Positions 28,261 to 43,409 of a DNA stretch of 64,000 nt are shown here, one piece after another. Source of the stretch: Candidatus Latescibacterota bacterium. Its GTDB lineage: Bacteria; Latescibacterota; UBA2968; UBA8231. The position numbers and the translations under genes were made by a program. The DNA lies in the NCBI GenBank assembly GCA_965217585.1, contig OZ244561.1, forward strand, positions 3,104,001 through 3,168,000. Reading direction: 5' to 3'. The notes beneath the pieces are model-generated. The model worked only from the letters and a program-made list of their open reading frames with translations, did no database searches and had not been told where the DNA came from. Each line of letters opens with the position of its first letter. Position 1 is the first letter of the stretch.

Positions 28261-30906
28261 TCACCGCGCGGCTTGGGGCTTGACAGTGCAAGTGGGACAG
28301 ACGCGCCGCAGGTGTTCGCGCCGCACCTGCCACAGGTCGAGGGCCTTCACTAATTCGCATTCGGCCTGCCCCACCTTGCCCCGCCGCTGCAACTTCCTCC
28401 GGTCGAGCGTTGAATCCAGTTTGTGGGTTGGGACCGGGCAGGGGCCGCTGCGAAAGGCCAGCCCCAAGACCTCCTCCACAGCCCCGTCTTGGCGCACGAT
28501 CCGGTCCTTGAGGGCAAAGGACTCGATGCAGCCGCAGGGCACGGACAGCTCGGCTACGTGATAAGCCGTGCTGGTGTCGTGCGTCGTGCCCAGCGCGAGG
28601 ATGTAGCCGCCGCCGTGTACCAATTTGCCGATCGGGCTATCTGCGGCCCAGATGCCGGCTTCGAGATGACCGTGGCAGTAGTGGCGGGCCCGCGGCCCAA
28701 TCGCCGCCACCGCATGGGTCGGATGCATGCTGCGCTCGGCCTCGGCGCGCCGCCACAGCGCGTCCGGGATCGAGCCGTTGGTGGTGGGGGTGGTCAGTGG
28801 GTTGAAGACCGCCGCCGCGCGGTGATTGAACGAAGGGGCCAGCAGGGTTCCCCGCTTGCCGACGGCTTGCAAGAGCGCGTCAACGACGGTCTCGGCACCG
28901 CCCTCGACAAAGCCGATGGCCGATAGGGAGCTGTGTACCATCAGGTCCATGCCTGGGGCGACGCCCAAGTTGCGCAAATCCGCCACCAGCGCCCGGCGGC
29001 TGACCATCTCCGCCGGGTTGATCAACTCGGCATAGCCCAATTCGGCGTGGGCCGCAAAGTAGGCGTGGACCCGGTCGATGGCGATAGGCTCTGTTGCTTG
29101 CTTTCGCGGTCCTGCGCTGGAGTCGGCCTCCTCGCAGGCGATGCGCTCGGCGATTTCGCCCAAGCTGCGGCGGCCATCGGCCCAAAACAGGGACCAAGGG
29201 GTAAACTGCGCGGCGGCGATGCGCTCGCTTATGGCCACAGGCGCGTTCTCCGCCGTCGGCGAGAGCACAGCCGTGCGCCGGGGTACCAGCCGCGCCTCGG
29301 CAGGTCGGCGCGGACGCTTTACCGGCGGTATGTCCTCGGCGGCGGCCGCAATTTGTCGCTCGCCGTCGGCGATGGCTCCCAAGACCTCGCTGCGCCCGCC
29401 GCCCCAGAGCCAGCGCGTTAGCCGCTGCACACTGCGGCTGTGCGCGTCGCGGGTGTACTCGGCTTCAACGCGGGAGCCTTTTTGGCGTTTTAGCACCCCG
29501 AGAAAGTACTCGTTCTCGGTGCGGACCAATTCTCCCACCTCCGCACTACCGAGGTCGGCCAAGTAGTGCACATAGGCCGCTATAGCGGCGGCGCAGGTCT
29601 CCAGCCCCTTGGGACTGAGCAGTTTTTCCACGTCGGCCGAAGAGTGATAGGCATCAAAGCCGCGCCCGCTCTTTTGGTGGTGCGTCGTCAGCCAGGGACA
29701 GGGGAATCCGTATTGCGGGTCGCCGATCAGGGTGTCGGAAGTGGACATAAAGTGCGCTGGATATACGCGGTAGCCGGGTTGGTGCTGCCGCACCCCGGCG
29801 CGCAGGATCGCCGCGCCGACGCGATCGACAAAACTGGCCGACATTGGGATCGTCCCGTGCCACTCCAAGCGGCCGTCGCAGACTTCGGGCCGGGATCCGA
29901 CCGTGTCGATACACGCACCGGCCAACGGCGTCTGGAATCTCCGCATCCGCTCTAGGTAAGCAAAAAACCCGTAGCACTCGTACGCGTTGAGCAGGCGGAT
30001 GGTGCGCTTAGGCCGCGCGATCTCGCCGGCTTGGATAAGCCCTTCGATTATCCGGGCGATCTCCAAGGTCACAGCTACGCCCGACGCGTTATCTACGGCC
30101 CCCGGCTCGGCGCTATGGGCAATGACCCAAACTTCGTCTTGGGGGTCGTCGGCTCCGGCGATGATCCCGCTAACCACATCGTGGCTGCCCACGTATTTGC
30201 GGACATCGGCCACCACCTGTACCGTCAGCGCCCCATGCTGCTGCGCCAGCCGCCTGAGCTGTTCTCCTTGGCTGGCAGAGATCGCAAAGCCCACTAGGCG
30301 CGCCGTTCCCTGCTGCGGGGGGATCGCGCCCCACCCGAACTTGGTCCAGGCCACTGCATCTGGCAGGTTGGGGACCTGTTGGTCGGAGATGACCGCAGCA
30401 GCGCCCTTATCGGCGAGCAGCTTGAGGTGAGTGCGCGGGTCTAGTTTCGTCAGCACGAGCGCCCCGGCGAGTCCATCGGCCGGCTGCCGCTCGATTTCTT
30501 CAGCGTGGTCGAGGATAAATAGCCGCAGCCGCAAGCCACCCGGTGGCGTCGCCGCGCTCCATTGGATGAGGTGCCAGGGGTTGACCTGCCAATCCAGTAC
30601 CCGCTCCGCGACTGGATGCACCACATCGACGGTCGCTCCTTGGACATCGGCCGCCTCCTGGATGATCCACCGCCCAGAGCCGATCCGCCCTCCCGTCTGA
30701 ATCGCCTCGACCTCGGCGCGCGCCCCGGCGGCCTCGTACCGCCGCACCAGCGTCGCGGTCGTCTCGTGAAAGCGGTCAAACGAATTCCAGCGATCGGTAG
30801 CGACCACTTCCCGCACCGCCCCCATCATTTCTCGTCCATTCGCCGCCTGCAACATCAGCGGCAAGGTTTGGCGGCAGAGCCGCTGCAACGATTTCGCGCT
30901 AGCCAT
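28261..30906 (-). CDS. Fusion of an M28/DUF4910-like metallopeptidase domain and an AAC(3)-family N-acetyltransferase
   Basis: AHSAEPGAVDNASG, YHSSAD, wHTH-like WADGRRSLGEIA, then LGV..G..LMVHSSLS.IG, RS.HPTH, T.YHVAE; AAGGAGGAG RBS. Confidence 0.85.
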   Translation of the reverse strand: MASAKSLQRLCRQTLPLMLQAANGREMMGAVREVVATDRWNSFDRFHETTATLVRRYEAAGARAEVEAIQTGGRIGSGRWIIQEAADVQGATVDVVHPVAERVLDWQVNPWHLIQWSAATPPGGLRLRLFILDHAEEIERQPADGLAGALVLTKLDPRTHLKLLADKGAAAVISDQQVPNLPDAVAWTKFGWGAIPPQQGTARLVGFAISASQGEQLRRLAQQHGALTVQVVADVRKYVGSHDVVSGIIAGADDPQDEVWVIAHSAEPGAVDNASGVAVTLEIARIIEGLIQAGEIARPKRTIRLLNAYECYGFFAYLERMRRFQTPLAGACIDTVGSRPEVCDGRLEWHGTIPMSASFVDRVGAAILRAGVRQHQPGYRVYPAHFMSTSDTLIGDPQYGFPCPWLTTHHQKSGRGFDAYHSSADVEKLLSPKGLETCAAAIAAYVHYLADLGSAEVGELVRTENEYFLGVLKRQKGSRVEAEYTRDAHSRSVQRLTRWLWGGGRSEVLGAIADGERQIAAAAEDIPPVKRPRRPAEARLVPRRTAVLSPTAENAPVAISERIAAAQFTPWSLFWADGRRSLGEIAERIACEEADSSAGPRKQATEPIAIDRVHAYFAAHAELGYAELINPAEMVSRRALVADLRNLGVAPGMDLMVHSSLSAIGFVEGGAETVVDALLQAVGKRGTLLAPSFNHRAAAVFNPLTTPTTNGSIPDALWRRAEAERSMHPTHAVAAIGPRARHYCHGHLEAGIWAADSPIGKLVHGGGYILALGTTHDTSTAYHVAELSVPCGCIESFALKDRIVRQDGAVEEVLGLAFRSGPCPVPTHKLDSTLDRRKLQRRGKVGQAECELVKALDLWQVRREHLRRVCPTCTVKPQAAR

Positions 30907-34698: not shown

Positions 34699-36111
34699 GT
34701 GCCCCAAAACGTCAGCGAAGAACACGTACGCAAAATAGTCGAAGAAGTGGTGCAGCGCGTCGTCAGCGGCGGGGACGGCAGCGAGGGCGGGGACACTGGT
34801 GTCTTCGCGACGGTCGACGCGGCTGTCCAAGGCGCGACCCGCGCCCAGCAGCAGTTGGTGGCCTTGTCGCTAGAGGAGCGCAAAAAGATCGTCGAGGCCC
34901 TCCGGCAGACGGCGCACGTCCACGCCGAGGAGTTTTCGCGGCGGGCCTTGGCCGAGACGGGCATGGGGCGGTTGGAAGACAAGATCATCAAGCACCAAGT
35001 CGCGGCCGACACCACGCCCGGTGTCGAAGACCTAGAGGCCACTTCGTGGACCGGCGACCACGGGCTGACCGTAGTCGAAATGGCTCCCTACGGGGTCATC
35101 GGCGCGGTCACCCCATCTACACATCCCGTGCCGACGATGGTCAACAACGCCATTTGCATTGTCGCCGCGGGCAACTCGGTCGTCTTCAACGTACATCCGG
35201 CGGGCAGAAAGGTCTCCATGTTCGCGGTGGGCTTGATCAATCAAGCCATCGTCGCAGCCGGCGGGCCGGCCAACTTGGTGACCGCGGTTGAGACGCCGAC
35301 GATTGAGACGGCCAACGAATTGTTCAACCACCCGGATGTCCGCCTGCTGCTGGTAACCGGCGGGCCGGGCGTGGCCAAGGCCGCACTGGGTAGCCCCAAG
35401 AAGGCCATTGTCGCTGGTCCGGGCAATCCGCCCGCGGTGGTCGATGAAACCGCCGATTTGGCCAAGGCCGCGCGCGATATAATCGACGGGGGGGGCTTCG
35501 ACAACAACATTCTCTGCATCGGCGAGAAGCAGGTCTTTGCCGTCGCCTCCATTGCCGACGAGCTCAAGCGGCTGATGGTCCAGTACAATGCATATGAGCT
35601 CGATGCGCGGCAGATCGAGGCCCTCGCGCAGGTGGCCTTTGTCGAAGGGCCGGACGGGCATCTCGCAGCCAACCGCGAGCTGGTAGGACGCGACGCTGCC
35701 GTGCTGGGCGAGCGCATCGACCTCCGGCTCGACTCGTCGCTGCGCGTGCTCATTGGCGAAACCGACGCCAACCACGTTTTTGTGCGCGAGGAGCAGATGA
35801 TGCCCTTTCTGCCGATCGTGCGGGTTCCCAACATCGACCAAGCCATCCGCGAGGCCGTCATCTCCGAGCACGGCTACGGGCACACGGCCGTGATCCATTC
35901 GCGCAACATCGAAAACATGCACAACATGGCCCGCGCCGTAGATACCACTATTTTCGTCAAGAACGGCCCTTCCTACGCTGGGGTTGGCTTGGGCGGCGAG
36001 GGCTTTGGGACGTACTCCATCGCCGGGCCTACGGGCGAGGGCCTGACTTCACCGCGGACTTTTACCCGCCAGCGCCGCTGCGCCCTCGTCGACTACTTCC
36101 GCATCACCTGA
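34699..36111 (+). CDS. CoA-acylating aldehyde dehydrogenase (EutE/PduP family) with N-terminal encapsulation peptide
   Basis: AETGMGR.EDK..K, PYGVIGAVTPSTHP, TGGPGV, AGPGNPP, FDNNILCIGEK (catalytic Cys), EQMMP, HTAVIHS; SEEHVRKIVEEVVQRV peptide. Confidence 0.95.
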   Translation: MPQNVSEEHVRKIVEEVVQRVVSGGDGSEGGDTGVFATVDAAVQGATRAQQQLVALSLEERKKIVEALRQTAHVHAEEFSRRALAETGMGRLEDKIIKHQVAADTTPGVEDLEATSWTGDHGLTVVEMAPYGVIGAVTPSTHPVPTMVNNAICIVAAGNSVVFNVHPAGRKVSMFAVGLINQAIVAAGGPANLVTAVETPTIETANELFNHPDVRLLLVTGGPGVAKAALGSPKKAIVAGPGNPPAVVDETADLAKAARDIIDGGGFDNNILCIGEKQVFAVASIADELKRLMVQYNAYELDARQIEALAQVAFVEGPDGHLAANRELVGRDAAVLGERIDLRLDSSLRVLIGETDANHVFVREEQMMPFLPIVRVPNIDQAIREAVISEHGYGHTAVIHSRNIENMHNMARAVDTTIFVKNGPSYAGVGLGGEGFGTYSIAGPTGEGLTSPRTFTRQRRCALVDYFRIT

Positions 36112-36425
36112 TGCTCTTGGGCCAAGTCAAAGGGCATTTGGTTTCCACGGCCAAGGTCCCGAGCCTCAACGGCAAGAAGCTCTTAGTCGTCGAAATCGCG
36201 TCGGTGCGCGAGCATGGTCTGGTGCTGACGGGGCGGGATATGGTCTGCATCGATGCGGTGCAAGCGGGCAAGGGCGAGCTGGTGATTTTGGTGCAGGGCA
36301 GCTCGTCGCGGATCGCCCCGGACTTGGCCGACGTGCCAGCCGACGCGGTAATCGTCGGGATCGTCGATTCGCTACAGGCCATGGGCAAAGACTTCGACTG
36401 TCGGCAACTGAGCCGCGAAGGATAG
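36111..36425 (+). CDS. BMC vertex (pentamer) protein, EutN/CcmL family
   Basis: MLLGQVKG.LVST.K...L.G.KLL, D.VQAG.GE.V, GSSSR, PADAVIVGIVD. Confidence 0.95.
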   Translation: MLLGQVKGHLVSTAKVPSLNGKKLLVVEIASVREHGLVLTGRDMVCIDAVQAGKGELVILVQGSSSRIAPDLADVPADAVIVGIVDSLQAMGKDFDCRQLSREG

Positions 36426-36428
36426 GCG

Positions 36429-37109
36429 ATGGACGTTGCACCAGCGGCTGGATTGGACCGCAAGCAGATTGAGGCGTTGGTGCGCCGGGTGGTGTACGAT
36501 CACCTGCCCGACGCTCAGCTAGAGCAGGCACCCCCAGCCCCGAGGCTGGTAGTCAATATGTCCGCCCGCCACGTCCACCTCAATCAAGAGGCGCTGGACG
36601 CGCTTTTCGGCGCGGGTGCCGAGCTAACCGTGCAGAAGGCCCTGTATCAGGAAGGAGCTTTTGCCGCCGAGCAGACGGTGTCGGTTTTCGGCCCGCGCAA
36701 GCAGGTGATTCCCAATGTCCGCATCCTCGGCCCATTGCGCGAGTACAACCAAGTGGAGCTGGCCTTTACGGACGCCCGCTTTTTGGGCATTAACGCGCCG
36801 GTGCGGCTCAGCGGTAACATAGAGGGGACGCCGGGCTGCTACTTGGTGGGGCCGGCTGGGGGACTAGAGTTGGATCACGGGGTGATTCGGGCCGCCCGCC
36901 ATGTACATCTAAACCCGGCAGAGGCCGCGTACTATGGGGTCGGCCCGGGGGACTTGCTGCGGCTGGTAGTAGAAGGTGACCAGGGCGGGGTGCTGGAAGG
37001 GCTGATCTGTCGAGTCAGCGAGCGCGAGCGCCTAGAAGTTCACATCGACACGGACGAGGGCAATGCGATTGATTTGGTCCATGCCCGCAAGGTATATTTG
37101 GAGCGTTGA
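36429..37109 (+). CDS. pduL: Phosphate propanoyltransferase PduL with N-terminal encapsulation peptide
   Basis: SARHVHL, VRILGPLR..QVEL..TDA, AARHVHL, HIDTDEGNA; DRKQIEALVRRVV peptide. Confidence 0.95.
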   Translation: MDVAPAAGLDRKQIEALVRRVVYDHLPDAQLEQAPPAPRLVVNMSARHVHLNQEALDALFGAGAELTVQKALYQEGAFAAEQTVSVFGPRKQVIPNVRILGPLREYNQVELAFTDARFLGINAPVRLSGNIEGTPGCYLVGPAGGLELDHGVIRAARHVHLNPAEAAYYGVGPGDLLRLVVEGDQGGVLEGLICRVSERERLEVHIDTDEGNAIDLVHARKVYLER

Positions 37110-37146
37110 ACGCAAAAATCCGCACAATTACTTCAGGAGGTAAGGG

Positions 37147-37707
37147 ATGTCGGATGCAATAGGCATGGTAGAAACGGTGGGGCTGGTCGGGGTCGTCGAG
37201 GCCGGCGACGCCATGGCCAAGGCCGCCAGCGTACAGCTTTTGGGCTGGGACAGAGTCGGCTCCGGCTTGGTGACCGTGTTTTGCTCGGGCGATGTGGCGG
37301 CCGTCAAGTCGGCCGTGGATGCCGGCTCGGCCGCTGCGGCCAAGGTTGGGGAGGTGCATTCGGTGCATGTGATTCCCCGCCCGCACAGCGAGTTGACGGC
37401 CGTCGTGCCCGAGCGCGGCGACAGCGACGACAGCGATGGTCGCGTCCGCGCCTTGGGTCTCATTGAGACGAAGGGGGCCATCGGCGTGATCGAAGCAGCC
37501 GACGCCATGAGCAAGGCCGCCGATGTGGAGGTCGTCAAGCTCCAGGACATCGGTGGCGGGTACATTACCGTCATGGTCAGCGGCGACGTAGGCTCGGTGC
37601 AGGCTTCGGTCAGCGCTGGTGCCGAGGCGGCCGAGCGCGTGGGCGAGCTTGTGTCGCAGCACGTGATTCCCCGTCCCCACGACGATCTCGTCGCGTTGTA
37701 CTTGTAG
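37147..37707 (+). CDS. BMC shell protein with two tandem non-permuted domains
   Basis: Two AxGxxET..DAM.KAA..GDV..V..HVIPRPH units; pore loops RVGSG and DIGGG. Confidence 0.95.
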   Translation: MSDAIGMVETVGLVGVVEAGDAMAKAASVQLLGWDRVGSGLVTVFCSGDVAAVKSAVDAGSAAAAKVGEVHSVHVIPRPHSELTAVVPERGDSDDSDGRVRALGLIETKGAIGVIEAADAMSKAADVEVVKLQDIGGGYITVMVSGDVGSVQASVSAGAEAAERVGELVSQHVIPRPHDDLVALYL

Positions 37708-37723
37708 GTAGAGGAGAGAAATA

Positions 37724-37987
37724 ATGAAAGCATTGGGTATGGTCGAGACCCGCGGTTTGGTCTGCGTCGTCGAAGCCCTCGACGCCATGTTGAAAACCGC
37801 CGACGTGAGCTATGCGGGCCAAAAGCGCGTGGGTAGTGGCCTAATTACCGTGCTAGTCGAAGGCGACGTAGCGGCCGTCAAAGCGGCCGTAGATGCGGGA
37901 GCGCAAGCCGCCCAGCGCATCGGCGAGCTGCGCAGCGTCCACGTGATTCCCCGCCCTACTGAGGGGCTGACAGACCACATTGGTTAG
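37724..37987 (+). CDS. BMC-H hexamer shell protein (EutM/PduA-like)
   Basis: [36 protein letters not shown]. Confidence 0.96.
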
Positions 37988-37991
37988 CTAA

Positions 37992-38441
37992 GTGGCCGAG
38001 GCTTTGCACATCGACGCCCCGGTAGTCACCGGCGATTTGCTCGGGCGCGAGCACAAGGGCGAGCGGACGCTCAGCGTGGCTCCCAGCGCCATCTTGACGC
38101 CGACGGCTTGGGATTACATCCGCCAGCACCGGTTGCAGCTAAGTCGCGGCGAGGCCGTTGCGGCAGCCGCCGACGGCGTTGCGGACGCGGGCCGTTGCGA
38201 GCATCCCGACCGCGCCTGCGGCTGCCAGCACGAGGAATTTGGCTCGGGGTACGTCGAGCCGTCGCGCTGCGGCGATTGCGCCGTCCACCAGCGCAAGAAG
38301 GCGGGGGATCCCGAGGCGAGTTGCGAGGGTTGCAACCGCTACAAGACGCTGTTGCAACAAATCGAGCAGGGCCAAGCCACCGATCCAGAAGCCTTAATTG
38401 AGCAGATCACCGAGCTAGTAATTCACCGGCTGGCAGACTAA
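37992..38441 (+). CDS. BMC-associated Cys-rich hypothetical protein with C-terminal encapsulation-peptide-like helix
   Basis: N-terminal ILTPTAWDYIR domain, 7 Cys (CEHPDRACGC, CGDC, CEGC), DPEALIEQITELVIHRL tail. Confidence 0.82.
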   Translation: MAEALHIDAPVVTGDLLGREHKGERTLSVAPSAILTPTAWDYIRQHRLQLSRGEAVAAAADGVADAGRCEHPDRACGCQHEEFGSGYVEPSRCGDCAVHQRKKAGDPEASCEGCNRYKTLLQQIEQGQATDPEALIEQITELVIHRLAD

Positions 38442-38444
38442 GCT

Positions 38445-39029
38445 ATGGCGGGCGACCCAGCAGTTGGCATGATCGAAGTGCAGGGCGTGGCCGCCGCCAT
38501 TGTGGGTGCGGATGCGGCCTGCAAGGCCGCGGATGTGCAGCTCGCGGGTTGGGCGTCAATCGGCGGCTATACCACGGCCTTTTTCACCGGGTCGATCAGC
38601 GATGTGGCCGCCGCGCTGCAAAGCGGCGAAGAAGCGGCCCGCGGCGTGGTAGAACACGTGGTGGCCGTGCCTCTAAACCAACCCGTTCCCGCCTGCTTCC
38701 ATTTCGTCGATTTTCCGGTCCGTGCCCACAGCGACTTTCCCGCCGGTGCCTTGGGGTTGGTCGAGACGCGCGGCTATGGGGCCCATATTCACACGAACGA
38801 TCAGATGGTCAAGACGGCTGCTGTCGAGGTAATCAACGTGCTGACGGTCCACGACCGCGTGGTGTGTTCGCTGGTCTTGGGAGACGTAGGAGCCGTCACC
38901 GAAGCCATCGCCGTCGCGCAAAAGCTGCTCGCGGGGTGCGAGCGCTTGCTAGGCACGGCACTGATTCCGCAGCCGCGACCAGAGGTTTTGGCTGCATACG
39001 CCGTGCCGATGGGAGGTGGCGGTGTCTAG
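38445..39029 (+). CDS. Divergent two-domain BMC shell protein
   Basis: AVGMIEVQG..DAACKAA and ALGLVETRG..DQMVKTA..GDVGAV..IPQPRP. Confidence 0.9.
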   Translation: MAGDPAVGMIEVQGVAAAIVGADAACKAADVQLAGWASIGGYTTAFFTGSISDVAAALQSGEEAARGVVEHVVAVPLNQPVPACFHFVDFPVRAHSDFPAGALGLVETRGYGAHIHTNDQMVKTAAVEVINVLTVHDRVVCSLVLGDVGAVTEAIAVAQKLLAGCERLLGTALIPQPRPEVLAAYAVPMGGGGV

Positions 39030-40170
39030 CGGGGCGATCGGCATGTTGGAGACGCGCGGCATGGCGTCGCTGATGGCTTCCACCGACGCCATGCTCAAGG
39101 CCGCTGAGGTACACCTCTGTGGTCGGCACGGCATTGGCTCGGGTTGGCTCACCGTAGTAATTGCCGGCCAAGTAGCTGACGTGGAGGCGGCCATTCGCGT
39201 CGGCGAGGTCGAGGCGAACCGCACCGGCGAATTGATTGGCGCGCGAGTGGTGCCGAGGCCGGACACGCGCGCCATGGACGCCATGCCCCACGCAACTGGC
39301 CTCGGTGCCGAACAGGTACGGCCGCAGGCGATTGGCCTGTTGGAGACGCAGGGCCTGACGCCGCTAGTGGCTGGCGTCGATGCCATGCTCAAGGCCGCCC
39401 AAGTGGAGCTAGGGGGTTGGGCTTTCATCGGCGGCGCGCTGTGTCACGCGCCGATCTTTGGCGATGTGGCGGCTGTGCAGACGGCGCTAGAAGTCGGCCG
39501 ACAAGCAGCCGAGCGGATTGGCACTGTGTACGCGACCCTCGTTTTGCCCCAGCCCAGCGAGGGGCTAGGCCCTCTGCTGCCGCCCGCGCCACCGGTCACA
39601 CCGCGCTCCACGGGTGCCTTGGGCCTCATAGAGACCATTGGTTACTCCGCGGTCGTGGGCAGCGCCGACGCCATGCTCAAGGCCGCGGATGTCCAAATCG
39701 AGCGCTTGAGCATCGGCAGCGGCGGGCGGATTGCCGCGCTGGCTACCGGCCAGCTCGACGACGTGCAGGCCGCCCTGCGCGCTGGTGCTGAGGCGGCCAC
39801 GGGCTTGGGGCAGCTCGAAGCCTCGGCTGTAGTCTCTCGGCCCGATCCCGCGCTAGTCGCTCGTTTTGCCACTGCGGCCGAGGGCCTTGGGCCGGGTGCG
39901 CGGCAGGCTATGGGGCTGATTGAGACGCGCAGCACCGTGGCCTTGGTGCGGGCCGTCGATCGGATGCTCAAAGCCGCGGCCGTCGAATACGAAGGGGCCT
40001 ATAAGGTGGGGTACTACTTGACGGCCGCCGTCGTCCGCGGCGATGTCGGTGCCGTGCAGGTCGCCATAGAGGCGGGCCGGCAGGAGGCCGTCGCACACGG
40101 AGAACTGGTCTCGGCCTACGCCATTCCGCAGCCCTACAGCGGCCTCGAAGGCCGCCTGCCGCACGTTTAG
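39022..40170 (+). CDS. Four-domain BMC shell protein
   Basis: Four consecutive BMC domains, each with AxGxxET and D(A/R)MLKAA; GGAGG at 39012-39016 supports GTG 39022 (the ORF track starts at 39016). Confidence 0.92.
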   Translation: MSSGAIGMLETRGMASLMASTDAMLKAAEVHLCGRHGIGSGWLTVVIAGQVADVEAAIRVGEVEANRTGELIGARVVPRPDTRAMDAMPHATGLGAEQVRPQAIGLLETQGLTPLVAGVDAMLKAAQVELGGWAFIGGALCHAPIFGDVAAVQTALEVGRQAAERIGTVYATLVLPQPSEGLGPLLPPAPPVTPRSTGALGLIETIGYSAVVGSADAMLKAADVQIERLSIGSGGRIAALATGQLDDVQAALRAGAEAATGLGQLEASAVVSRPDPALVARFATAAEGLGPGARQAMGLIETRSTVALVRAVDRMLKAAAVEYEGAYKVGYYLTAAVVRGDVGAVQVAIEAGRQEAVAHGELVSAYAIPQPYSGLEGRLPHV

Positions 40171-40184
40171 CGAGGACGCGAAAA

Positions 40185-41357
40185 ATGATTCGGATTGACG
40201 ATGCAGTAATTACCGCTCAGACCTTGGAGGGCCGCCTGTCTGGCGAACGGCAGGTCGAGCTCGGCCCGGGGGCCAAGCTGACGCCCTCGGCGCAGGACTT
40301 TTTGCGCGCTCAAGGCGTTGAGGTTGTGCGTCGATCGGACGGGGAGCCAGCACCTGCCGCGCCCGCCGCGCCCCGGGTCCCGGCCGCTAACGTGGGGGGC
40401 CGCAAGGCATTTGCTGGCATCTTCTGCCCCAACGTCGTCCTTTTCGACCGCGAGAACGAGATCAACCACGCCGAGATGGAGCGCTACATCAACTGGCTGG
40501 TCGAGGTTGGGATCCACGGGCTGTATCCCAATGGCAGCACTGGCGAGTTCGCGCGCTTGTCGCGGGAGGAGCGCCAAGACGTGGTGCGGCTGGTCTGCGA
40601 GGTCAACGCGGGGCGCGTACCTGTACTGGCCGGAGCCAGCGAGGCCAACTTGCGCGACGTGCTCAAGATGGCTGAATACTACGCCTCGCTCGGCGTGGAT
40701 GCCATTGCGCTGATGCCCCCCTATTACTATGAGATTTCCACTGAAAGCCTCTTCGAGTACTTCGCTGAAATCGCCGAAGAATCGCCGCTGGACATCTTGC
40801 TATACAATATCCCGCGATTTACCCAAGAGCTGTCGATAGATCTGATGGAGCGACTCTTGCCCTACGAGCGGATCTTCGGCACCAAGGACTCCAGCCGCGA
40901 CCTGCCGCGGCTGCTCAACACCATGAATCGCTTGCGCCAACAGCGCCCCGAATACGTGGTAATGACCGGTTGCGAGGAGATCGTGTTCCCCTCGGTGCTC
41001 ATGGGCGCCAGTGGGGGCACCATCGCCACCTCGGGCATCGTCCCAGAGGTGATTGTCGAGCTTTATGAAAAGGCCAAAAGCGGCGACATTGAGCGGGCCC
41101 GCGAACTGCAATACCGCATCCTCGATCTCATCAACCTCATGCTCTTAGGCGTCAACTTCCCAGAGGGCTTCAAGACCGGCGTGGCGGCTCGTGGCTTTGA
41201 CGTAGGCCCAGCGCGGGCATCTACTACTGCCGCCGAGCAGGAGTACCTGCTCAAGCTAGAGGCCCAAATCAACTGCGTCCTCGCGGATATGGGCTATCCG
41301 GTGAGCGGCCCCCGCGCCTGCCCGACGACCAACCTGCCGCCGATCGTCGGCCGTTAG
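40185..41357 (+). CDS. DHDPS/NAL-family class I aldolase with an N-terminal BMC-associated extension
   Basis: NGSTGEF, GRVPVLAG, PPYY, LYNIP, GTKDSS (Schiff-base Lys); about 70-aa extension with LTPSAQDFLR and a Pro/Ala linker. Confidence 0.92.
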   Translation: MIRIDDAVITAQTLEGRLSGERQVELGPGAKLTPSAQDFLRAQGVEVVRRSDGEPAPAAPAAPRVPAANVGGRKAFAGIFCPNVVLFDRENEINHAEMERYINWLVEVGIHGLYPNGSTGEFARLSREERQDVVRLVCEVNAGRVPVLAGASEANLRDVLKMAEYYASLGVDAIALMPPYYYEISTESLFEYFAEIAEESPLDILLYNIPRFTQELSIDLMERLLPYERIFGTKDSSRDLPRLLNTMNRLRQQRPEYVVMTGCEEIVFPSVLMGASGGTIATSGIVPEVIVELYEKAKSGDIERARELQYRILDLINLMLLGVNFPEGFKTGVAARGFDVGPARASTTAAEQEYLLKLEAQINCVLADMGYPVSGPRACPTTNLPPIVGR

Positions 41358-42434
41358 ATGGCCCTTGCGGGCGCGCGTGTGTTGGTGGTCGGGGCCGGTA
41401 TCATTGGCCGCTCGACGGCCTACTTCCTCGCGCGGCAAGGCGCGAAGATCGTCCTGCTCGACGAGGGAATCCCCGCTGGCTCGCCCACGAGCCGGGCCTC
41501 TTTGGGCGTCCTCACCCACTGCAACGGCGGCGACAATCCCTACGCCCAGCTTTTCCGCGACGGTCACGCTCTGCACGCTCGGCTGGCCCGCGACTTAGAA
41601 GAAGATATAGACGCAGATGTGGGCTGGCGTCCCCTCGGCGGCATCGAGCTTTTTGCCGACGCATCCCAGATAGAGGAGGTCTGGCGCTTCAACCGCGCGC
41701 GCGGCTGTCGGGTCGAACGGCTCGACGAGCGGGCCTTGCGCGGTGCGGAGCCGGCGTTGGACGGCGGTTGCGAGGGTCTGTATTTTGCCGACGATCACCG
41801 GGTGGATCCCCTCAAGTTGGGCGCGGCGCTTTGGGCGGCGGCCGTACAGCGTGGCGCGTCCGCCGCTTGGGGTGAGCGCGTCTGGCGCATTGCCCAAGAG
41901 GGCGAGGCCGTCGAGGTCGCCACCAGTCGCGGAACCCACCGCGCTGACTTTGCGGTCTTGGCGGCTGGAGCGTGGACCGGCGGCTTGGCTGCGCAACTCG
42001 GTGCCCGCGTCGCGTTGCGCCCGGTGCGGGGCCAACAAGCGCGATTTGCCGGTGCCCCGCTGCGCCACCTAGTGAAGGTAAACGGACGCCACCTAATTCC
42101 AGACGGCGGCGAAACGGTCGTGGGATCGACGATGGAAGAGGTCGGCTTTCGGTTGGAAACGACCCGCGCGGCCGCGGCGGAGTTTGCCTCGGAGGTACGC
42201 TCCGCGCTGGGGAGGTGCTTGCCGCTGTCGCGCCAGCAGGCTGGTCTGCGGCCCAAGCCCCGAGGCGGGCGTCCGCTCATCGGCCCGCTGACGGATGCGC
42301 CGAGGGTTTTCGTGGCCTCTGGGCACTACAAAAACGGCGTCTTATTAGGCCCGATTACCGGCCAGATCGTCGCTCACTGGATCGCCGAGGGAACCCCAGG
42401 GCGCGACATGCGCCGCTTCGCACCCGAGCGTTGA
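41358..42434 (+). CDS. FAD-dependent oxidoreductase, DAO/glycine oxidase (ThiO-like) family
   Basis: VVGAGIIG, LAAGAW, PVRGQ, VGST.E, AGLRP, GHYKNGVLLGP; starts at the base after the aldolase stop. Confidence 0.9.
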   Translation: MALAGARVLVVGAGIIGRSTAYFLARQGAKIVLLDEGIPAGSPTSRASLGVLTHCNGGDNPYAQLFRDGHALHARLARDLEEDIDADVGWRPLGGIELFADASQIEEVWRFNRARGCRVERLDERALRGAEPALDGGCEGLYFADDHRVDPLKLGAALWAAAVQRGASAAWGERVWRIAQEGEAVEVATSRGTHRADFAVLAAGAWTGGLAAQLGARVALRPVRGQQARFAGAPLRHLVKVNGRHLIPDGGETVVGSTMEEVGFRLETTRAAAAEFASEVRSALGRCLPLSRQQAGLRPKPRGGRPLIGPLTDAPRVFVASGHYKNGVLLGPITGQIVAHWIAEGTPGRDMRRFAPER

Positions 42435-42467
42435 ATTCATTGCCACCTAACACAGTTGAGGTTAAAC

Positions 42468-43409
42468 ATGCCATTGCAAAAAGAAGACCTACTCGCCGCG
42501 CTAAACTCGGTTACCTCCATCCCGGTGGTCCCTTTTCGCGGCGGGCAAATCGACTACGAGGCCCACGCCAAGAACATCAACTACTTAATGGAGAACAATC
42601 ACTTAGACGGTGATCGGCCCCGGGTGATTGGTATCGCTGGCACTAGCTTGATCCACCACATTAGCGCGGACGAGCGAGTGCGGCTGTTGGGCTTTACCGG
42701 CGAGCAGATGGGGGGGCGCGGGGTGCTGATGTCCGGGATTGCTCCCAATCCAGTTGGGGATGCCGAGCGGTTGATCGAGCGGGAGGCCGCGCTGGAATAT
42801 CCCCCGGATGTCTATCTCGTCATGCCGCTTACTGGCGTGGCCAATCCAGAGGGCATTTTCGCGTACTACGTGGATTTTGCCGAGCGGTTGGGGCGTTCGT
42901 GCGGGGCCAAGTTGCTCTACTACCTGCGCAACCAAGCCGAGCGCGAGATAGCCGTGCGACTGATGAACGAATCCGAGCACTTCGTGGGGCTGAAGATCGG
43001 CACTACGGTCGAGGACGTTGAGCCGATTGTCGCCGACGTACAGGAGGGAGCTGCGCTGGTGATATGGGGTGTGGGGGACCGTTCGACTGGGCCGGCCGAG
43101 CGCGGCACCAAAGGGCATACGTCGGGGATCAACGTGGCCTTCGCCCGCGCTTCAGACGAGATCAACAACGCCCAGCGCCGAGGCGATTTTGCGACCTCGC
43201 AGCAGATCGAAAACCAGCTCGCGGCCCTAGAGGAAATTCGCTTCCGCAACGGCCGCATGTACAACTACTCGGCTGTGGTCGAGGCCATGCACTTGGGGGG
43301 ATTCAGCGATGTGGATGGCGGCGAGGGCGGTCCGTTCAATCCGCGGGTGTCGGCGGAAGTGGCCGAGGAAGTAGCCGCGGCCATAGCCGACATTGTGGAC
43401 TATCACTAG
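42468..43409 (+). CDS. Divergent DHDPS/NAL-family protein (KdgD-like dehydratase or aldolase)
   Basis: IPVVPF..G.ID, LLYY, FVGLKIG (Schiff-base Lys), GHTSGI; GxxGE loop altered to GIAGTS. Confidence 0.75.
   Translation: MPLQKEDLLAALNSVTSIPVVPFRGGQIDYEAHAKNINYLMENNHLDGDRPRVIGIAGTSLIHHISADERVRLLGFTGEQMGGRGVLMSGIAPNPVGDAERLIEREAALEYPPDVYLVMPLTGVANPEGIFAYYVDFAERLGRSCGAKLLYYLRNQAEREIAVRLMNESEHFVGLKIGTTVEDVEPIVADVQEGAALVIWGVGDRSTGPAERGTKGHTSGINVAFARASDEINNAQRRGDFATSQQIENQLAALEEIRFRNGRMYNYSAVVEAMHLGGFSDVDGGEGGPFNPRVSAEVAEEVAAAIADIVDYH

Follow-up and report, generated by a model that had tools for sequence, protein, structure and literature searches.

A four-domain microcompartment shell protein and its two-domain neighbour in Candidatus Latescibacterota, a candidate 4+2 hetero-pseudohexamer

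How can a shell protein with four bacterial microcompartment (BMC) domains fit into a shell whose textbook tiles are six-membered, built either from six one-domain chains or from three two-domain chains? The question is raised by two overlapping genes on contig OZ244561.1 of a Candidatus Latescibacterota bacterium (assembly GCA_965217585.1). They lie in a stretch of 64,000 nucleotides (nt), here called the window, whose coordinates are used below unless stated otherwise. The first gene encodes the two-domain protein T194 (domains TD1 and TD2) and the second the four-domain protein Q384 (domains QD1 to QD4), whose residues are numbered from an open reading frame (ORF) of 384 amino acids (aa). 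An earlier inspection, made from the letters alone (the sequence-only reading), had proposed that the two proteins form a 1:1 tile of six different domains. We found this proposal supported computationally by gene adjacency, co-occurrence, the lack of genuine fusions, six domain clades and a ring-closing model, and we estimate at about 70% the probability that T194 and Q384 form an obligate 1:1 hetero-pseudohexamer of the 4+2 type.

To define the domains, we scanned the whole genome with the PF00936 profile and converted the limits to window positions (genome coordinate minus 3104000). Q384 scored 255.5 bits and T194 109.7 bits, against a curated cut-off of 24.5. Each Q384 domain covers the full profile in order, as does TD2, and TD1 covers all but its last four positions. 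Thus, the six domains are complete, colinear and not circularly permuted, which bears out the four complete non-permuted domains previously claimed for 39022-40170. All six align almost gap-free to the BMC-H protein of the locus, and their pairwise identity ranges from 20 to 47%. We then compared both chains with the established shell classes. The circular permutation of the BMC-T(dp), BMC-T(sp) and BMC-H(p) classes is absent from T194 and Q384. The single domain per chain of BMC-H is found in neither, the chains having two and four. The exactly two tandem non-permuted domains of BMC-T(s) are present in T194 and not in Q384.

The Q384 frame opens at two GTG codons, at 39016 (384 aa) and at 39022 (382 aa, the length of most Q384 database homologues). 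Since the GTG at 39016 lies within the Shine-Dalgarno sequence GGAGG, the GTG at 39022, separated from that sequence by 5 nt, is the likelier start, as had been proposed. The T194 stop codon TAG (39027-39029) is inside Q384, and the overlap from the 39022 start is 8 nt; the overlap with a two-domain gene and a ribosome-binding site of its own, both previously noted, are therefore real features of Q384.

To evaluate the coupling of the two genes, we scanned one genome per species and obtained 69 Q384 loci, 66 of which include upstream DNA. In all 66, the gene immediately 5' of Q384 on the same strand is a T194 homologue, a recurrence beyond chance; in the other three loci a contig end cuts into Q384. 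An overlap of 1-14 nt is seen in 43 of the 66 loci, a gap of 1-12 nt in 22 and one of 175 nt in a single locus (L057), counts that depend on a heuristic choice of start codon. In the genome of the window itself (G000), the two profile matches abut at genome positions 3142457-3143023 and 3143025-3144164, and the same holds in the rows compared. Sixteen satellite loci contain T194, Q384 and an aldolase gene only, with no other gene of the locus within about 8 kb.

The same coupling is seen in the inheritance of the pair. Among 168 genomes of the phylum, 104 gave matches to the Q384 profile at E<=1e-30. These comprise 77 genomes with a full-length match (profile positions 2-5 to 384/385, 479-630 bits, no internal stop; many of them single-contig), six with a partial match in assemblies of 320-820 contigs, and 21 in which ordinary two-domain proteins gave the only matches, as cross-hits with E of about 1e-44 to 1e-48. 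A strong Q384 match is therefore present in 83 genomes (77 full-length and 6 partial). The T194 profile at E<=1e-45 matched 84 genomes, namely these 83 and one more (G096), a 980-contig assembly in which the T194 match breaks off at profile position 161 at the contig end. Homologues without the partner, which would have spoken against the proposed pairing, were looked for and none was found, the T194-only genome being explained by its contig end.

To examine whether the two chains can close a ring, we predicted the 1:1 complex from paired alignments of 34 rows each, one locus (L032) being excluded for its X residues. The interaction prediction score from aligned errors (ipSAE) was 0.84, 0.86 and 0.85 in three runs, compared with 0.00 for the best of three controls; in calibration, 58 of 80 solved complexes and 2 of 110 mismatched pairs attained the mark applied to this score. 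The three runs share at least 92% of their contacts, and the predicted local distance difference test (pLDDT) value of the partner is at least 88. Specifically, the prediction that had been suggested as a check places the two-domain chain as a bridge between QD1 and QD4 (ipSAE 0.85 vs 0.00). At the QD1-TD2 junction, strands 1 and 4, the pore loop and the C-terminal helix of QD1 (Q384 residues 8-92) touch helix A and the pore-side strands of TD2 (T194 residues 110-143). At the QD4-TD1 junction, helix A and the pore-side strands of QD4 (Q384 residues 305-362) touch T194 residues 7-87, where TD1 presents the same four elements as QD1 does at the other junction. The two junctions between the chains are thus built from one pair of surfaces, turned the same way round, as is characteristic of a single closed ring in the order TD1-TD2-QD1-QD2-QD3-QD4. 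This ring order matches the gene order; T194 residues 188-189, near the C-terminus, are among the contacts, and residue 139 in the QD2 pore loop of Q384 is also in modelled contact.

The AlphaFold2 monomer models are confident for both chains, with a pLDDT of 91.7 for Q384 and 92.2 for T194, and a predicted template modelling score (pTM) of 0.90 for each. The best Protein Data Bank (PDB) match of both is 6NER, for the Q384 model with TMt 0.90 over the length of about two domains, and for T194 with TMq 0.83. We found no chain in the PDB that covers more than two Q384 domains.

A domain tree was computed from every third row of the 34-locus alignment (12 loci) together with the ordinary BMC-T and BMC-H of the window. 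Each of the six positions formed one clade with an ultrafast bootstrap of 99-100 and a stem of 0.43-1.57 changes per site (clade support: TD1 100/100, QD1 99/93, QD2 100/98, QD3 99/94, QD4 100/100). The longest stems are those of the T194 domains (1.35, and 1.57 for TD2). The tree leaves the relations among the positions unresolved, and we make no claim that the six domains arose from a triplicated two-domain protein with A/B alternation.

All six domains keep the D-x-x-x-K motif, whose edge lysine acts in tile-tile contacts in PduA and BMC-H proteins. Its D and K do not vary in any of the domains across the 34 sequences (D23 and K27 in TD1), and the edge lysine reported for every Q384 domain is read as DAMLK in QD1 to QD3 and DRMLK in QD4. 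The pore loops had been read as six different segments (SIGGY, TVHDR, GIGSG, FIGGA, SIGSG, KVGYY), and we confirmed this reading. Across the 34 sequences each loop is conserved and specific to its position: GWxSIGG(F/Y)TT in TD1, VLTVH(N/D)RVVC in TD2, RHGIGSGW in QD1, GWAFIGGALCH in QD2, RLSIGSGGR in QD3 and YKVGY(Y/F)LT in QD4. In the TD2 loop, R138 and C141 are present in all 34 and H136 in 31.

Furthermore, three pore-tip residues vary together. Residue 334 of Q384 (QD4) and residues 137 (TD2) and 42 (TD1) of T194 are Y/D/Y in 28 and F/N/F in 33 of 67 loci, with few intermediates, and the pair Q334-T137 is among the strongest inter-chain covariation signals. This joint change in the alignments is suggestive of three residues that line one pore. 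Apart from the pore loops, Q384 has invariant or nearly invariant histidines outside the usual BMC motifs, in an MPH sequence after QD1 (P91-H92; 39286-39291), in the C-terminal LPH (H383; 40162-40167), at H38 in QD1 and at H144 in QD2; if clustered on one face of the tile, they could form a metal or ligand site.

Several observations weigh against the obligate 4+2 tile. Adjacency and co-inheritance need not mean binding. All three controls of the complex prediction were unrelated proteins, none of them a BMC decoy, and predictors lay any BMC domains into a hexamer-like ring, many such rings having been solved. The complex score may reflect family likeness instead of specific pairing; the result thus supports the capacity to form a BMC-type ring more than exclusive pairing, and we argue the specificity of the T194-Q384 pairing from the genomic data. 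Only 3 of the 25 best contact pairs have two variable columns, and by corrected mutual information these three rank at the 92nd, 97th and 53rd percentile; in the other 22 pairs at least one column is invariant or nearly so, which gives this covariation test little power. A hand count of invariant residues at the T194 interface gave no signal of enrichment (about 12 of 38, compared with about 11 expected). The joint change of the pore tips may represent perhaps two or three evolutionary events. Finally, the edge arginine of the P-R-P motif is kept mainly in QD1 (25/34) and QD3 (30/34) and is mostly replaced by Gln in the other four domains, which may make the edge behaviour of the tile unusual.

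These points leave room for other assemblies, of which one survives best. Here, the Q384 ring would be completed promiscuously by two BMC-H chains or by the ordinary BMC-T of the locus, T194 would form a homotrimer of its own, and the co-inheritance of the two genes would follow from their shared organelle. Other BMC genes are indeed available, 5 of the 11 PF00936 matches in the genome lying outside the pair; T194 alone is predicted with confidence to fold as a normal tandem BMC protein; and mixed hetero-hexamers of BMC-H paralogues have been reported for CcmK3/CcmK4 (available text of PMC6788708). However, no other shell gene is near the pair and its aldolase in the satellite loci, 83 of the 84 genomes with T194 have both genes (in the remaining one, T194 is cut by a contig end), and TD1 and TD2 have diverged furthest among the six positions, as expected of a dedicated partner. 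We therefore consider promiscuous completion unlikely.

A second possibility is that Q384 spans two tiles, either as three chains in two rings, stacked or side by side, or as one chain that staples neighbouring tiles. Three chains of four domains give twelve, which also satisfies the rule of six; the linkers between the Q384 domains, about 19-22 residues long, are compatible in length with a crossing to a neighbouring tile; and stacked double rings are known for the permuted BMC-T(dp) class (Sutter 2021, in the parts of PMC8217296 available). But the Q384 domains are non-permuted, whereas the known stacking class is permuted. The three linkers are alike in length, each preceded by a short C-terminal helix in the manner of in-plane tandem proteins, and the monomer model is rigid, with an in-ring tandem chain as its best PDB match. 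A two-tile Q384 would also leave its obligate two-domain partner unexplained. This evidence disfavours the three-chain double ring indirectly, and we regard any two-tile arrangement as quite improbable.

To confirm that the four-domain gene is genuine, we searched for near-length homologues of Q384; of 8000 candidates scored, 755 proteins reached E<=0.001. Those listed, 120 in number, are 285-404 aa long, with identity down to 54%, and homologues at about 50% identity still keep all four domains. We also aligned public contigs on positions 37900-40400, from three RNA-library studies and a further run (four runs in all); together they cover the gene junction and every linker. There were no insertions, deletions or joints in 38445-40170; the sole difference of this kind in the whole interval is a 3-nt deletion in one contig at 38166. 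Two RNA-library contigs of 3747 and 4400 nt, from two studies and about 95% identical, span the T194/Q384 junction, running from 37900 to 39262 and 39191. A 1219-nt contig extends from 39280 to 40334, over the QD2-QD3 and QD3-QD4 linkers and into the aldolase gene, and shorter contigs of the third study cover 39029-39458 and other parts. The RNA-library contigs document presence in those libraries and are no proof of transcription or of a single transcript. An error of assembly had been named as a possible refutation; on the contrary, independent DNA and RNA-library assemblies agree on the four-domain frame. Errors of this kind do occur, as one database protein (P0284, below) is a T194/Q384 frameshift chimera, but with an uninterrupted full-length frame in 77 genomes, four domains kept down to about 50% identity and gap-free contigs in four runs, we give a negligible probability to the views that the four-domain gene is decaying or that it was created by misassembly or by a frameshift joining two BMC-T genes, and assembly error is excluded for practical purposes.

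One RNA run that contains part of the stretch is labelled 'sponge metagenome' (X17, share 0.24), as is a second run with only a small share (X22, 0.14), and related loci are labelled as Latescibacterota or Gemmatimonadota metagenome-assembled genomes (MAGs). The clade may be host-associated.

Genomes in which the two genes are fused or split differently would show the six domains in another arrangement, and had been proposed as a check. We found no genuine case within the T194/Q384 family. There was no six-domain fusion among the 120 listed near-length homologues, none of which exceeds 404 aa. A search of 1.84 billion protein representatives with the Q384 profile gave 63 matches at E<=1e-30; among the best 150 listed there was no six-domain protein, and P0121 (387 aa) alone matched the full profile without a break. 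A single long protein (569 aa) is among these 150; with two BMC stretches, it is no six-domain fusion. Among proteins of 341-2000 aa, the T194 search gave three matches at E<=1e-20, including P0284 (411 aa). This protein joins T194 residues 4-146, about 50 out-of-frame residues and the first Q384 domain, and was rejected as a frameshift chimera; it is represented by one sequence from one contig and probably stems from an error of sequencing or assembly in a single metagenome. Three loci (L046, L050, L070) have ORFs of 603-808 aa, which were rejected as fusions since they are over-extended open frames of GC-rich DNA. The phylum search revealed no split forms of Q384, the partial matches all lying in fragmented assemblies or at contig ends.

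The library search revealed natural BMC proteins with three domains. Seven of the ten library matches tested have this architecture (P0127, P0128, P0130, P0135, P0141, P0147 and P0170; 286-330 aa, three PF00936 domains each), and one cluster member is named as coming from a Dehalococcoidia MAG. P0128 and P0130 are found on five contigs each, share the same longest contig (520,993 bp) and both have members on a 5,151-bp contig. By these shared contig counts alone, the two may be a 3+3 pair. A metagenome scan with P0128 gave just generic matches of 40-52% identity and one 29-residue fragment at 69%. We found no paper on natural three-domain BMC proteins.

Taken together, the data point to a tile in which the overlapping genes would deliver T194 and Q384 in a 1:1 ratio by translational coupling, and the two chains would close a single flat pseudohexamer in the order TD1-TD2-QD1-QD2-QD3-QD4. 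With the canonical edge lysine on all six edges, the tile should fit shell facets like a BMC-H hexamer or a BMC-T trimer. Since every pore loop is present once, the central pore would have no symmetry. QD1 to QD3 would contribute three consecutive small Gly/Ser pore tips, and opposite them would stand a bulky polar cluster of Y333 and Y/F334 (QD4), F/Y42 (TD1), and H136, D/N137 and R138 (TD2).

The genomic context suggests a purpose for such a tile. An aldolase gene of the dihydrodipicolinate synthase (DHDPS) family lies directly 3' of Q384 in 62 of the 67 loci with sufficient downstream DNA. The pair is inherited with this aldolase even when the other shell and enzyme genes are elsewhere, from which we infer that the tile serves the aldolase. 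It could be a specialised, low-copy conduit for the anionic 2-oxo-acid substrate or product of the aldolase, or a docking site for the enzyme. The fullest form of this reading joins an obligate 4+2 tile, a fully asymmetric and substrate-specific gate or docking site dedicated to the co-inherited aldolase, and membership in a larger group of higher-order BMC fusions, as yet undescribed, to which the three-domain proteins would also belong (as 2x3 or 3+3 tiles). We put it forward tentatively, as a possible combination.

If the 4+2 tile is real, natural shell tiles extend beyond the textbook 6x1 and 3x2 forms. Shell permeability and cargo attachment are discussed almost wholly in terms of symmetric pores, six-fold in hexamers and three-fold in trimers. 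In an asymmetric tile, evolution could set single residues in the pore or on the tile face, the six positions being individually evolvable, a placement that engineers have only approached through designed tandem fusions. The pair would also be a ready-made asymmetric scaffold, one tile with six addressable positions in fixed order, and would add a class to the shell-protein catalogue by which microcompartment loci are called and classified.

The coordinates of the gene pair and of the neighbouring genes are collected below.

Table 1. Features of the T194/Q384 gene pair and of the surrounding locus (window positions).
Feature	Position	Strand	Evidence
Acylating aldehyde dehydrogenase	34699-36111	+	PF00171; NF011927, E 2e-196
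BMC-P	36111-36425	+	PF03319
PduL phosphotransacylase	36429-37109	+	PF06130
Ordinary tandem BMC-T	37147-37707	+	PF00936 x2
BMC-H	37724-37987	+	PF00936 x1
Cys-rich protein, 149 aa	37992-38441	+	no Pfam family at E<=0.01
T194, two-domain BMC shell gene, proposed partner	38445-39029	+	194 aa; PF00936 x2, E 6.9e-32
TD1, pore loop SIGGY	38460-38663	+	PF00936 profile 1-71/75
TD2, pore loop TVH(D/N)RVVC	38748-38975	+	PF00936 profile 1-75/75
GGAGG ribosome-binding site of Q384, within T194 3' end	39012-39016	+	sequence read directly
Q384, four-domain BMC shell gene	39022-40170	+	382 aa; PF00936 x4, E 2.1e-77
QD1, pore loop GIGSG	39034-39261	+	PF00936 profile 1-75/75
QD2, pore loop FIGGA	39328-39555	+	PF00936 profile 1-75/75
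QD3, pore loop SIGSGGR	39616-39843	+	PF00936 profile 1-75/75
QD4, pore loop KVGY(Y/F)	39907-40134	+	PF00936 profile 1-75/75
DHDPS-family (class I pyruvate-aldolase-like) gene, ~70-aa N-terminal extension	40185-41357	+	PF00701, E 6.4e-59, residues 76-362
FAD-dependent oxidase, DAO family	41358-42434	+	PF01266, E 8.5e-57
Second, divergent DHDPS-family protein	42456-43409	+	PF00701, E 3.1e-10

The pair is part of a shell locus, with BMC-P, PduL, aldehyde dehydrogenase, BMC-H and BMC-T genes in one block on the + strand. The enzyme set of 34699-43409 suggests a metabolosome that oxidises an amino acid to a 2-oxo acid, from which the aldolase would then give pyruvate and an aldehyde. The DAO-family oxidase has a ThiO-like match (E 3.6e-51) that is under the family cut-off; the pairing of DAO and DHDPS families could, speculatively, indicate a hydroxyproline-type route. 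A scan for promoters and terminators gave none above shuffled sequence (3 sites vs 2.0 expected; 9 vs 9.8).

The gene upstream of T194, encoding the Cys-rich protein, adjoins T194 in 48 of 66 loci by script count and is listed in two further loci. We found that the Cys-rich protein resembles the aldolase N-terminus (BLASTP, 35% identity over about 48 aa, E 2e-7; 37992-38135 and 40185-40330). The two share the N-terminal motif ...GER-x-hydrophobic-x3-P-x-A-x-LTP-x-A-x-D..., which has a weak likeness (E 8e-4) to the C-terminus of TIGR02536, a family of ethanolamine-utilisation loci. In the aldolase, the shared domain is followed by a Pro/Ala-rich linker. This shared domain, about 48 aa long, may serve to target proteins to the shell, as a module unlike the usual short encapsulation helix. 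A search of the ESM Atlas with the Cys-rich protein gave scores below 0.9 throughout, which are leads only.

Elsewhere in the genome, at a great distance from the main locus, we observed a BMC-P satellite triplet (C1:5126021-5126816, - strand) and two isolated BMC-H genes (C1:1549825-1550052, + strand; C1:6432676-6432903, - strand). This scattered pattern with a BMC-P triplet is how the catalogue describes FRAG-type loci (available parts of PMC8217296). An 881-aa ORF in the window (28261-30906, - strand) joins an M28-peptidase-like/DUF4910 region to a C-terminal aminoglycoside 3-N-acetyltransferase (PF02522, E 7.9e-43), an unusual fusion that is unrelated to the shell gene pair.

How does the proposed tile compare with known shell proteins? 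In its available parts, the shell-protein catalogue recognises six types, each built from a pentamer domain or from at most two BMC domains (PMC8217296), and the 2014 taxonomy gives the same picture (PMC4207490, likewise in part). The accessible text of PMC8217296, PMC4207490, PMC3909097 and PMC11626177 has no mention of a shell protein with more than two BMC domains. In the full-text literature we found no paper on three- or four-domain BMC proteins, supplements being outside reach, and such proteins, or this locus type, may well be among the trees and locus tables of PMC8217296 (Supplementary Data 1-2). Within the searchable literature, we rate an obligate 4+2 heteromer with a fully asymmetric pore as new; what is familiar is the fold, the geometry of the tile and the organelle.

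Among the closest natural classes is BMC-T(s), of the PduT and CcmO type, which has tandem non-permuted PF00936 domains, linkers of about 20 residues and a flat pseudohexamer of alternating non-equivalent domains; T194 and each half of Q384 resemble it in fold. BMC-T(s) tiles are two-domain homotrimers with three-fold symmetry and two kinds of pore loop, whereas the proposed tile would combine a two-domain and a four-domain chain, with six kinds of loop and no symmetry. BMC-T(dp) proteins, such as CsoS1D and CcmP, form a twelve-domain tile that is comparable to three Q384 chains. However, their domains are circularly permuted and their two trimers are stacked face to face (PMC8217296, in the available text), whereas the Q384 domains are colinear with the Pfam model.

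The paralogues CcmK3 and CcmK4 of beta-carboxysomes can each occur apart from the other, whereas T194 and Q384 genes are never apart. The CcmK3/CcmK4 hetero-hexamers are also multi-gene hexagonal tiles with a broken six-fold pore symmetry (available text of PMC6788708), but they consist of single-domain chains that mix, and in the T194/Q384 tile order and stoichiometry would be covalently fixed. The best match of both proteins in structure and in sequence (E 2.1e-33) is 6NER, a synthetic tandem fusion of BMC-H from the Haliangium ochraceum shell, in which linked canonical BMC-H domains take adjacent ring positions and still build shells. 6NER is engineered, has two identical domains and forms a homotrimer; T194 and Q384 are natural, carry six diverged domains and would be heteromeric.

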